Positions 15,301-18,216 of a stretch of DNA of 64,000 nucleotides are shown piece after piece; the first letter of the stretch is position 1, and each line of letters opens with the position of its first letter. Below the pieces are notes generated by a model, which saw nothing but the letters and a program-made list of their open reading frames with translations, did not search any database and was not told the DNA's origin. A program made the position numbers and the translations under genes. The DNA lies in NCBI GenBank assembly GCA_964618145.1, contig CAZTZR010000007.1:2010-66009 (forward strand), read 5' to 3'. This stretch comes from an uncultured Kofleriaceae bacterium (GTDB lineage Bacteria > Myxococcota_A > Polyangia > HGW-17).

Positions 15301-16233
15301 ATGAATACATCCGTATGTCCTCCCTCCGAACAGTTGATTGAAGAAATCCGGTCCATGAAGGAAGAGCGCCGTGCAGTCATCCTGGCGCACAACTATCAGT
15401 TGGCCGAGGTGCAGAACATCGCGGACTTTACCGGGGACTCCCTGGAGTTGTCGCGAAAGGCGGCCAGGGTGGAAGCCGACGTGATCGTGTTCTGCGGGGT
15501 GCACTTCATGGCGGAGACGGCTGCCATCCTTGCCCCGTCACGAACCGTGTTGCTTCCCGTGGAGACCGCAGGGTGTCCCATGGCCGACATGATCACGGAG
15601 GATGAACTGGTGTCGTTCCAGGCGGCCCATCCAGGGTCCATTACGGTGACCTACGTGAATTCCACGGCAGGCATCAAGGCGCTTTCGGATATCTGCTGTA
15701 CGTCTGCCAACGCCCGGGCGGTTGTGGAAAGCCTGCCGGCGGATCGCACCATCCTGTTTGTTCCCGATCGGCATCTCGGTGAATGGGTGACCCGGGACAT
15801 GAACCGCAAGGTGGAGTTCTGGCCGGGGTACTGTCCCGTCCACCAGACCATCGTTCCCCAGGACATTGATCGCCGCCGTGAACAGTTTCCCGAAGCCATC
15901 GTGATGGTTCATCCCGAATGCGACCTGCCGGTCTGCCTCAAGGCGGATTATGTGGAAAGCACGGGGGGAATGCTGCGTCGGTTGGAGCAGTTCCCCCGGG
16001 GAGCCACCCTGGTTGTGGGGACCGAGGCCGGCCTGATCAACCGCATGCAGTTGTTGCGTCCGGATCTGGTGCTGGTGCCTGCGGGACCCGATCTGGTGTG
16101 TGCGAACATGAAGATGACCCGTCTGGTGCACGTACGGGATGCCTTGGTCCACATGAAGCATGAGGTGACCGTGCCGGAACCGACGGCAGCCAGAGCACGG
16201 CGATGCATCGAAAGGATGCTGGAAATCCATTGA
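15301..16233 (+). CDS. nadA: Quinolinate synthase NadA.
   Basis: VILAHNYQ, FCGVHFMAETA, TYVNSTA and HPECD motifs. Start chosen at MNTSVCP (15301) rather than the 15190 extension. Confidence 0.9.
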   Translation: MNTSVCPPSEQLIEEIRSMKEERRAVILAHNYQLAEVQNIADFTGDSLELSRKAARVEADVIVFCGVHFMAETAAILAPSRTVLLPVETAGCPMADMITEDELVSFQAAHPGSITVTYVNSTAGIKALSDICCTSANARAVVESLPADRTILFVPDRHLGEWVTRDMNRKVEFWPGYCPVHQTIVPQDIDRRREQFPEAIVMVHPECDLPVCLKADYVESTGGMLRRLEQFPRGATLVVGTEAGLINRMQLLRPDLVLVPAGPDLVCANMKMTRLVHVRDALVHMKHEVTVPEPTAARARRCIERMLEIH

Positions 16234-16922
16234 TGCCCCTTGGTCCCAACGAGCCATCGGAAATCCCGGGACTTTGTACGGAGCCCCAAATGTCTTTCTC
16301 CGAAAGGGAACTGCAGGTTCATCCACAGGTGGAACTCCGTCCGTGGCCTGTGCGCATCGGACCCATGGAACAGGATCTGATGGAGACCCTGCACAGGCAG
16401 GAGCAGGATTTGCGGCGTGGATACGAAAAACTGGAAGAATTGCGATCCACGGCCAGAGAAGAGGGTTACCGGGAAGGAAAAGATCAGGCCTTCAGGGAGT
16501 TTCTTCGGCTGTGGACAGAGCGACTGGAGGCATGGGAACAGGTCCTGTCGGCGGACCGGGAAACAATTTCCCGGAATCTTCCCGCTCTGGCAGCATCCCT
16601 GGCAGCCCGGGCACTGGGGCGTGAGCTCTCGCTGGATCCGGCTGCCCTGGCGGACATGACACGGACCCTTCTGGGGGATTCGGTGGCGATGGAAACCGTC
16701 ACCCTCGTGCATGCCCCTGCGGATGAAGGAAGGTTTGAATTCTTGCGGGTTGATGTTGCCGCACGGTTTCCCCATGTGGTTTTCCGTTTGCAGGCCCGCA
16801 CGGATGTGCCGGTCGGCCAGGTGGTCATCGAAACTGCCTCATTCCGTCTGGATGGTCGGCTGTCGGCCTGGGAGGCGGTATGGCGGGAACACCTTGAAAG
16901 GTTCTCCCATGAGTGTGGATGA
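16233..16922 (+). CDS. FliH/YscL-like protein, the putative regulator/stator partner of the adjacent T3SS-type ATPase.
   Basis: ~230 aa, Glu/Arg-rich helical N-terminal part (LHRQEQDLRRGYEKLEELRSTAREEGYREG). The C-terminal domain ends overlapping the ATPase start. The start overlaps the nadA stop (TGATG). The assignment is mainly positional and compositional. Confidence 0.45.
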   Translation: MPLGPNEPSEIPGLCTEPQMSFSERELQVHPQVELRPWPVRIGPMEQDLMETLHRQEQDLRRGYEKLEELRSTAREEGYREGKDQAFREFLRLWTERLEAWEQVLSADRETISRNLPALAASLAARALGRELSLDPAALADMTRTLLGDSVAMETVTLVHAPADEGRFEFLRVDVAARFPHVVFRLQARTDVPVGQVVIETASFRLDGRLSAWEAVWREHLERFSHECG

Positions 16923-18216
16923 CTTCTTTACCGCTGCCATGCAAAAGGTCACAGGGGGTGGAATGCCCCGTCTGGGAAAGGTTTGCGGGATGGACGGACA
17001 ACTTGTCAGGGCCGTACTCCCGGAGCCGAGCATGGGTCAATGGGTGGTATTGTCCTCTGCGGACAACCAGATTCACCTGGAGGCCCAGGTGGTGGCCTTC
17101 GATCAGGAGAACATCTGGCTTTGTCCTGTTGGATCAGTCAATGGCATTGGTCCCGGTTGGAGTGTCCGCCCGTCAGAACCTCTGGCAGTGGTCGTTTCCG
17201 GAAGCATCAGGGGGCGTATCCTGGACGGGCTGGGTCGACCCATGGATGGCAAGGGACCACTGACAGGGGAACCAAGGCCCTTTGAGCAGGATGCACCGGA
17301 TCCGCTTTCCCGTCCCATGGTGCATTTGCCCCTGGTCACAGGCGTCCGGGTGATAGACGGTCTTTGCACACTGGCCCGGGGCCAGCGCGTGGGCCTGTTT
17401 GCCGGTTCCGGTGTGGGCAAGAGCCATTTGCTTGGACAACTTGCCCGTCAGGCCACATCGGACATCACAGTGGTCTGTCTGGTGGGAGAACGCGGCCGGG
17501 AAGTGGTGGAGTTCATCCGGGACAACCTGACTGAAAAGGGGTTGCAGAACTGTGTGATGGTGGTGGCAACCTCTGACCAGCCTGCCCTGGTCCGTGCGAT
17601 GGCGCCCCATTGCGCCACAGCCGTGGCTGAATATTTCCGGGACTCGGGCATGGATGTCCTGTTGCTGGTGGATTCCCTGACACGCCTGGCCCGGGCCAGG
17701 CGGGAAATCCATTTGCAACTCGGGGAAGCACCAGCCAGGCGCGGGTATCCGCCTTCTGTGTTCGCCTGTCTTCCCGGCCTTCTCGAAAGGGCAGGTCCTT
17801 CCATGCATGGAAGCATTACGGCCCTGTATACGGTGCTGGTGGAAGGTTCGGACATGGACGAGCCCGTGGCGGACGAGGTACGAGGCCTGCTGGACGGACA
17901 TCTGGTACTGACCCGGGAGTTGGCCGAACTGGGGCATTATCCTGCACTGGACGTTTCACGCAGTGTTTCCAGGTTGGCAAACCGGGTCATTGCCGGGGAA
18001 CAACGGGACCTTGCGAAAAGACTGCGAACCTGGATTTCCGCCCACAGGTCCGTCCGGGATCTGCTGCGCATCGGGGCCTATCAGGCCGGGTCAGATCCGG
18101 TGGTGGACGAGGCCCTGCCGCACATGGAAGAACTGGCGGCGTTCTGCCGGCAGGACTTCGGGACATCCACCTGGGAGGACACCTGGAACTGGATGCAACG
18201 CATTGTCCCTTCCTGA
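16909..18216 (+). CDS. FliI/YscN-family type III secretion ATPase, orphan (no other flagellar or injectisome genes nearby).
   Basis: Walker A is GSGVGKSHLLGQLAR, then VVCLVGERGREVVEF. Walker B is VLLLVDSLTRLARA. The ALDVSRSVSRL motif is present, and there is an N-terminal beta-barrel domain. Start at MSVDDFF (16909). Confidence 0.85.
   Translation: MSVDDFFTAAMQKVTGGGMPRLGKVCGMDGQLVRAVLPEPSMGQWVVLSSADNQIHLEAQVVAFDQENIWLCPVGSVNGIGPGWSVRPSEPLAVVVSGSIRGRILDGLGRPMDGKGPLTGEPRPFEQDAPDPLSRPMVHLPLVTGVRVIDGLCTLARGQRVGLFAGSGVGKSHLLGQLARQATSDITVVCLVGERGREVVEFIRDNLTEKGLQNCVMVVATSDQPALVRAMAPHCATAVAEYFRDSGMDVLLLVDSLTRLARARREIHLQLGEAPARRGYPPSVFACLPGLLERAGPSMHGSITALYTVLVEGSDMDEPVADEVRGLLDGHLVLTRELAELGHYPALDVSRSVSRLANRVIAGEQRDLAKRLRTWISAHRSVRDLLRIGAYQAGSDPVVDEALPHMEELAAFCRQDFGTSTWEDTWNWMQRIVPS

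Follow-up and report, generated by a model that had tools for sequence, protein, structure and literature searches.

The locus described here raises the question of what a FliI/SctN-type ATPase and its FliH/SctL-type stator, the cytoplasmic ATPase pair of type III secretion systems (T3SS), are doing beside the housekeeping gene nadA. The stretch of DNA analysed, hereafter the window, comprises 64,000 nucleotides (64 kb) of contig CAZTZR010000007.1 (positions 2,010 to 66,009, forward strand) in the assembly GCA_964618145.1 of an uncultured Kofleriaceae bacterium. The pair occupies positions 16233 to 18216 of the window. An earlier note on this DNA had pointed to it as an orphan that could energise a different membrane machine or be the remnant of a lost system.

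The evidence leans, if not heavily, towards the pair being the ATPase module of a dispersed needle-less T3SS (T3SS*), a kind of system characteristic of predators resembling myxobacteria, the export gate of which would be encoded elsewhere in the genome. This is the most likely reading because the T3SS* genes of Bradymonabacteria are dispersed over distances of hundreds of kb to Mb. In the mechanism proposed, a SctL/FliH-type stator dimer would hold the SctN/FliI-type hexameric ATPase, and both together would form the cytoplasmic T3SS ATPase module. This module, a member of the Myxococcota needle-less T3SS* radiation, would have been separated from the other T3SS genes in this uncultured lineage and would have become a fixed feature at the distal end of the operon nadA-sctL-sctN, in which translation is coupled. 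A short N-terminal motif of the stator (LRPWP) would then probably dock the complex onto a sorting platform and export gate (SctQ, SctV/R/S/T/U) encoded elsewhere, where the ATPase would hydrolyse ATP to release and unfold export substrates.

The nadA operon and its ATPase pair

The listing of open reading frames (ORF) and the family scans place three genes of the forward strand in the same direction and in tight packing. The first gene, nadA (15301-16233), encodes quinolinate synthase A (Pfam NadA, 376.4 bits), and its ATG at 15301 is preceded in the sequence by AAGGAG with a spacing of 6 nt. The second gene (16233-16922) encodes a protein of 229 amino acids (aa), assigned by profiles, an AlphaFold2 model and an orthologue alignment to the divergent stators (peripheral stalks) of the FliH/SctL type. 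Its ATG overlaps the nadA stop codon as TGATG. The public gene call for this protein (P0125) places the start later, at 16290, and gives 210 aa; the long form is favoured by the orthologue alignments, which match it from end to end. The third gene (16909-18216) encodes a FliI/SctN-family hexameric ATPase of 435 aa, identified by Pfam, NCBIfam, comparison with PDB structures and phylogeny. The start of this gene overlaps the end of the FliH-like gene by 14 nt, and the protein is identical to P0001. The overlapping starts suggest that the trio is translationally coupled, and its recurrence in other genomes, described below, that it is a conserved operon.

A weak terminator-like hairpin followed by a T-run lies 8 nt past the ATPase stop (18224-18241, forward strand, sequence scan) and possibly marks the operon end, which is only suggestive. 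Terminator-like sites were not above chance in the region (7 against 6.1 expected from shuffles), and the promoter scan gave the same outcome. No riboswitch was found 5' of nadA, the single Rfam match being a spurious HIV Rev response element (RRE) far under threshold. The gap between recA and nadA is occupied by an ORF of 140 aa on the reverse strand (14684-15106), the start of which is probably an internal ATG near 15064. This ORF would confine the nadA promoter to a gap of about 200 nt.

The sequence of the ATPase confirms a complete member of the FliI/SctN family with all the catalytic motifs, in agreement with the earlier note, which had recognised the Walker A, Walker B, ERGREV and DSLTRLA motifs. 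The Pfam model ATP-synt_ab (PF00006) matches with 274.6 bits, and T3SS_ATPase_C (PF18269), which describes the T3SS-specific C-terminal helical domain, with 63.6 bits against a cutoff of 22.7. The NCBIfam model of the FliI/YscN subfamily (TIGR01026) scores 483.5 against a cutoff of 379.5. The Walker A motif GSGVGKS (17404-17424) is kept across the clade of the window ATPase, and the clade alignment also locates GERGREV (17485-17505), presumably the site of the catalytic glutamate of T3SS ATPases, and the Walker B region LLLVDSLTRLA (17659-17691), all three on the forward strand. All eight clade members that were compared keep these motifs intact, and across the clade they are invariant. In the tblastn alignment with Salmonella FliI the ATPase shows 42% identity, and its N-terminal segment aligns with the FliH-binding N-terminus of FliI.

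Comparison with solved structures yields 364 bits for T3SS ATPases, 357 for EscN, 326 for FliI and 169 for the F1 beta subunit. The catalytic subunit of an F- or V-type ATPase, an identity that the earlier note had named as incompatible with its own, is rejected on the distance between 169 bits and the 326-364 bits of the T3SS ATPases. NCBIfam F/V models also fall far under their cutoffs, and no partner-subunit or rotor genes adjoin the locus. The F1 and V1 ATPases, with their b/E-type stalks, have a homologous fold, but the window contains no alpha/beta pair, rotor or membrane-sector gene and the T3SS_ATPase_C domain is present.

The FliH-like protein is far more divergent. The earlier note had described an overlapping, Glu/Arg-rich FliH/YscL-like gene of about 230 aa, and the composition and the length are as described. 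Taken alone, the protein reaches 23.8-23.9 bits with Pfam FliH, marginally under the cutoff of 24.1, together with weak NCBIfam matches to HrpE/YscL and FliH, and a word-indexed search returned solely the protein itself. A phmmer scan of 1.84 billion representatives gave 45 relatives at E<=1e-3. In the set of 44 aligned sequences formed by the window protein and its phmmer homologues, Pfam FliH matches 43 (best E-value 2.3e-26) and T3SS_SCTL matches 12. The AlphaFold2 model built from this alignment (predicted local distance difference test, pLDDT, 87) shows a helix at residues 44-134 followed by a C-terminal alpha/beta domain. Foldseek ranks the FliH chains in 5B0O, a FliH-FliI complex, first among the PDB matches of the model (E 1.2e-4), and the V-ATPase subunit E comes next. 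The gene lies directly 5' of the ATPase gene, to which it is coupled, an order common to the related loci L001, L002, L003 and L100. Profiles, model and gene order thus indicate a genuine but divergent FliH/SctL protein.

Pairwise identity in the subfamily of this stator is 22-38% (11-member alignment), and its best-conserved part is a near-invariant N-terminal block, LRPWP(L/V)(K/R)(I/V/L). In the window this short linear motif reads LRPWPVRIGP (16335-16364, forward strand). The block resembles the YscL N-terminus PFVQIIPS. The N-terminus of canonical FliH/SctL proteins binds FliN/SctQ, the sorting platform. Since the motif is kept in an otherwise divergent stator, and at the platform-docking position, it implies a conserved docking partner. 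LRPWP may therefore be a docking peptide and, if the arrangement is canonical, its partner would be SctQ/FliN-like.

Relatives of the pair and placement of the ATPase

The closest ATPases are 57-67% identical to that of the window. The block nadA-FliH-like-ATPase is found again, just as tightly spaced, in three other assemblies, namely L001 (GCA_964516435.1), L002 (ERZ4756920 NODE_6977) and L100 (JGI contig Ga0302247_1000702, found by a clade-specific DNA pattern). In these loci the ATPases are 57-63% identical to the window ATPase, a distance at which synonymous sites have reached saturation, and the NadA proteins, encoded directly 5' of the FliH-like gene, are 70-75% identical. The flanks of the four trios have no other gene in common. 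As the flanks differ and the trio is kept, the trio is a conserved unit and not a product of inherited general synteny, and the intact motifs together with this conservation point to a selected function.

These observations bear on the view, put forward in the earlier note, that the pair is the remnant of a lost system. A flagellum or injectisome in decay, the last genes of which are heading for deletion, would account for the isolation of the pair from all other T3SS genes and for a FliH-like score marginally under the Pfam cutoff. On the other hand, both ORF are intact with overlapping, coupled starts, and the catalytic motifs are invariant in a clade the members of which are 57-66% identical to the window ATPase. 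The gene order is kept in four diverged genomes with rearranged flanks, and the structure model of the FliH-like protein is a confident one. The remnant view is accordingly disfavoured and very improbable.

The relatives outside the trio form a graded set of contexts. The locus L003, from the sister group, carries the order thioredoxin-FliH-ATPase. The named members of the wider ATPase group are Myxococcota, Polyangiales or Sandaracinaceae. Bare FliH-ATPase (L-N) pairs are found in L096 and L097. In L004 (10001-11302), L091 (10001-11347) and L093 (10001-11305) the ATPase, FliI/SctN-like and of Polyangia/Sandaracinaceae type, stands without FliH, and no T3SS gene was found within 10 kb on either side. 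The lone ATPase is next to dnaJ in L004 and L091, and in L093 the two are about 5 kb apart. These three loci look like part of a clade of some size in which orphan ATPases have no stator. All three loci also have a pseudouridine synthase gene near the lone ATPase, and DUF3570/DUF4266 genes in L004 and L091.

Other members of the radiation keep more of a secretion system. The locus L095 holds, at a contig end (1294-5177), a compact operon of sctJ, a gene for an unassigned 250-aa protein, sctL, sctN and a gene for an unassigned 153-aa protein, in the order of yscJ-K-L and yscN-O. No gate genes were found in the 10 kb 3' of this operon, which seems to represent a T3SS partway through fragmentation. 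In L092 the ATPase is encoded within a true secretion cluster, which reads SctN, a YscO-like protein, one unassigned product, SctQ, a second unassigned product and SctR-S-T, plus a secretin. The L092 cluster, the L095 operon and the bare pairs, all in one radiation, would constitute a fragmentation series.

A neighbour-joining tree of 210 ATPases, rooted on the F1 beta subunit and with 100 bootstrap replicates, was used to place the window ATPase. A contig scan with the ATPase, dominated by the universal DMDEPVAD motif, returned mostly canonical flagellar loci at no more than 52% identity, and these loci served as controls and tree references. The window clade, the 10 tips of which include the two loci of P0006 and P0008, has a bootstrap of 100%, and its union with the L003 group 89%. 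In 73 of the 100 replicates the window clade has the Myxococcota-type group as its first outgroup; flagellar sequences take this place in 12, the T3SS-cluster type in 10 and the classical injectisome in 2. The Myxococcota-type group joins the T3SS-cluster clade, which comprises 10 sequences and holds the L092 ATPase, with 63%. The mean identity of the window ATPase follows a similar order (Myxococcota-type 0.51, T3SS-cluster 0.48, flagellar 0.47, classical injectisome 0.44). With moderate support, the ATPase appears to belong to a Myxococcota-dominated radiation beside the needle-less T3SS-cluster ATPases.

Secretion genes in the window and beyond it

The statement of the earlier note that no export gate, rod, hook or needle gene lies nearby holds for the whole 64 kb. 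Pfam scans of all large ORF revealed no other flagellar or injectisome core gene; the rod, hook and needle genes were covered solely by these scans, in ORF of at least about 90 aa. Searches of the window by tblastn with the Yersinia Ysc and Salmonella Fli proteins found no further T3SS gene, and custom hidden Markov models (HMM) of SctV/U/R/S/T/J/Q/O/K/D/C and FliG/E gave nothing at E<=10 in all window ORF of at least 40 aa. Applied to the control flagellar loci, these searches recover FliF/G/M/N/P/Q/R in most of them. The 4.9 kb past the right edge of the window, available from a second assembly of this organism (L098), contain nothing T3SS-like by gene table and HMM scan. A complete flagellar apparatus is therefore not present locally, as FlhA/FlhB/FliPQR, FliF/FliG and FliM/N are missing from the window, and neither is an injectisome or T3SS* locus, as SctV, SctR/S/T, SctU, SctJ and SctQ are missing from the window and the 4.9 kb. 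Two FHA-domain proteins of the window were considered as SctD on account of Yop-YscD_cpl matches and rejected: the matches are generic FHA matches beside Tad genes, the SctD model reaches just 15.9 bits and the custom SctD HMM has no match.

Local isolation is no proof of a missing channel, since T3SS* genes are dispersed in cultured Bradymonabacteria. In strain SEH01, sctN lies at 41 kb and sctV at 561 kb of Scaffold1, with sctR/S on Scaffold3, and in YN101 sctV lies at 0.85 Mb, sctU at 3.53 Mb and sctN at 5.99 Mb (PMC11509652, Supplementary file 4). The distance that separates sctN from sctV, sctU and sctR/S in these bacteria thus ranges from hundreds of kb to Mb, and locally sctN looks like an orphan, as the window ATPase does. 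A sctN gene that is orphan-looking within tens of kb is consequently normal in at least one class of Myxococcota. The likeness is drawn from the published gene tables, and the window lineage is a different one according to RecA. Genomes across the Myxococcia and Polyangia are reported to encode T3SS* components, with sctV and sctR in multiple copies (PMC11509652), and the early-branching 'Myxo' loci of non-flagellar T3SS (NF-T3SS) carry their own ATPase (Abby & Rocha 2012, PMC3459982). The nearest phylogenetic neighbours of the window ATPase include members of real or partial T3SS operons.

The RecA protein encoded in the window has relatives at 81-86% identity, and the closest relatives with a name, listed as 'Myxococcota bacterium' and 'Deltaproteobacteria bacterium', reach just 65%, which places the host in an uncultured, poorly sampled lineage. 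The window is otherwise Myxococcota-like by Pfam, with Ser/Thr kinases, a FHA-GAF-sigma54 activator and giant VIT/VWA proteins.

Among the closest known systems is the needle-less T3SS* of Myxococcus xanthus (mxan_2434-2464), of the 'Myxo' NF-T3SS type (PMC3459982). This system is recruited alongside the Kil Tad-like system where the cells touch prey, and it is required for prey lysis (PMC12075869). Its SctN and SctL belong to the same protein families as the window pair, and the tree places the window ATPase, with moderate support, among Myxococcota-type ATPases beside those of secretion-type clusters. The host biology is likely similar, given the Ser/Thr kinases, FHA-sigma54 activators and Tad/Kil-like module of the window. 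In M. xanthus, however, the ATPase is encoded inside one large T3SS* cluster, whereas in the window it is part of a three-gene nadA operon with no other T3SS gene in 64 kb. The window stator is also much more divergent and has the distinctive LRPWP motif at its N-terminus.

Several points weigh against assigning the pair to a dispersed T3SS*. No gate, ring, platform or SctO/FliJ gene was found in the 64 kb plus 4.9 kb, and none in the fetched flanks (about 2-10 kb per side) of the orphan relatives examined. The ATPase falls under the equivalog cutoff of SctN (TIGR02546, 499.1 against 604.75) and under those of the FliI clades 1-3 (497.4, 486.4 and 468.8 against 619.1, 629.8 and 587.45, respectively). 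By these scores it is roughly equidistant from the SctN and FliI types. The ATPases of the window clade share clade-specific substitutions, which together with the missed equivalog cutoffs could reflect a changed role of the ATPase. The stator subfamily scores 18-37 bits on the FliH/SctL HMM, compared with 84-137 for the proteins of L095-L097. The deep nodes of the tree are moderately supported and come from the neighbour-joining method only. Finally, the coupling to nadA is explained neither by secretion nor under any other reading.

The near equality of the FliI_clade1 and SctN scores (497.4 and 499.1), as well as the 12 replicates with a flagellar first outgroup, would suit the displaced ATPase of a true flagellum with its remaining genes elsewhere in the genome. 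This origin is nevertheless very unlikely. The nearest relatives are Myxococcota-type ATPases in non-flagellar contexts, the fliI of the control loci is nearly always preceded by fliF/fliG and fliH, and FliG, FliE and FliM/N are absent from the window and from all the fetched loci of the Myxococcota-type group. The Salmonella FliH2-FliI complex (5B0O/2DPY) shares with the window pair the folds of both partners and the overlapping fliH-fliI gene order, but the window has no FliF/G gene upstream, no FliJ gene downstream and no flagellar context, and its ATPase lies outside the FliI equivalog models.

Flagellar-type ATPases also persist in bacteria without flagella. The non-flagellated Chlamydia have an orphan flagellar-type FliI with FliH-like, FliF and FlhA proteins, which presumably work together with a dispersed injectisome. 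That set includes FlhA/FliF paralogues and coexists with a full injectisome, whereas the window holds the L-N pair only, of Myxococcota type. The non-flagellated predator Lysobacter enzymogenes OH11 retains FliI and partner genes that have functionally diverged (PMC7688988, PMC7277350). In the window the ATPase module alone is local, and it is not of the flagellar type.

The other reading with some standing is that of a repurposed module without a gate, the export apparatus having been lost or never having been used with this paralogue. The FliH2-FliI6 complex would then be an ATP-driven unfoldase or chaperone, either soluble or anchored in another way, or the motor of some other partner, and it would be co-expressed with nadA. 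The operon that the pair shares with a housekeeping gene is conserved, and no T3SS gene lies nearby in four of four genomes. The stator is very divergent and has its own motif, and the ATPase combines clade-specific substitutions with scores under the equivalog cutoffs. Related Polyangia-type ATPases are, moreover, fully alone without FliH, with dnaJ adjoining or about 5 kb off. Yet no alternative partner gene is kept beside the pair, dispersed T3SS* genes are documented in Myxococcota, and a retained stator with an N-terminal docking-type motif is what a platform-bound complex needs. A repurposed module is, on balance, rather unlikely. Similarly unlikely is the specific proposal that the LRPWP-type pair is a free-standing rotary-type ATPase module, detached from secretion and given a new job in co-expression with nadA. 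That proposal would tentatively extend to a wider, undescribed radiation of stand-alone Myxococcota SctN-like ATPases, some of them stator-less beside dnaJ.

The two outcomes differ in their consequences. If the pair belongs to a dispersed T3SS*, it represents a modest variant of known secretion and not a new machine, and the local gene context would badly under-report such systems in Myxococcota metagenome-assembled genomes (MAG). If the genomes have no export gate, the pair would be a rare T3SS ATPase-stator complex kept for a non-secretory function, which bears on how F1-like ATPases came to join secretion machines and to leave them. Concrete handles for testing either view are the LRPWP motif and the conserved coupling to nadA.

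The Tad-like module and other genes of the window

A Tad/Kil-like module lies on the reverse strand at 20315-26853. By Pfam it comprises an RcpC/CpaB protein (26035-26853), two T2SSF proteins of the TadB/C type (25175-26017 and 24297-25172) and two FHA-domain proteins (22884-24296 and 20315-22870). No CpaF/T2SSE ATPase, secretin or pilin was identified for it in the window, and the observation of the earlier note that this platform lacks its own ATPase was correct. In Myxococcus the Kil system is split over two loci, and Tad/Kil clusters with the ATPase elsewhere are normal there.

The suggestion that the FliI/SctN-like ATPase energises this platform draws on the position of the module, about 2-9 kb downstream of the pair, and on the absence of a T2SSE ATPase from the window. 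In M. xanthus the T3SS* ATPase SctN and the Kil Tad-like system are recruited together where the cells touch prey (PMC12075869), which adds a functional link between such systems, but not one of energisation. Against the suggestion, the synteny is not conserved, as no homologues of the window Tad-like proteins were found in the fetched flanks of L001, L002, L100 and L003, the first three of which are the other trio loci. The pair and the Tad genes are convergent, with two unrelated genes between them. The TadB/C platforms use secretion ATPases of the CpaF/TadA type, which belong to a different superfamily, and the window ATPase, having no T2SSE (PF00437) match by Pfam, is not a Tad/CpaF secretion ATPase. 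Such a role is highly improbable, and the ATPase module of a dispersed T3SS* remains the preferred reading.

In the Sandaracinaceae MAG with locus L091, about 4 kb separate the lone FliI-like ATPase from a FHA-T2SSE fusion ATPase of 610 aa (15689-17521). The two may form a further Tad/Kil-T3SS* neighbourhood, or they may lie close together by coincidence.

The gene directly 3' of the ATPase (18387-19736, forward strand) encodes a protein of 449 aa, the N-terminal segment of which is hydrophobic. The protein matches no Pfam or NCBIfam family and forms a singleton cluster in a collection of 15 billion proteins. The earlier note had rightly given nadA and an unrelated protein as the neighbours of the pair. 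This protein and the 546-aa protein encoded 5' were considered as partners of the pair and rejected, as they have no family match and are not kept beside the pair elsewhere.

The FHA gene at 20315-22870 contains tandem repeats of 12/36 nt at 22110-22423 and 20381-20499, with about 25 copies of the 12-mer. In the encoded FHA/TPR protein of 851 aa these repeats specify a long low-complexity linker rich in proline, glycine and methionine (PGM/PGMQ). Farther from the pair, a gene on the forward strand (10344-11858) encodes a fusion of the catalytic PyrB and regulatory PyrI domains of aspartate carbamoyltransferase in a single protein of 504 aa. Two adjacent genes on the reverse strand (30667-38899) encode giant proteins of 1366 and 1400 aa with VIT, VWA, FecR and TPR domains, and further large TPR proteins are encoded at 47088-54471.

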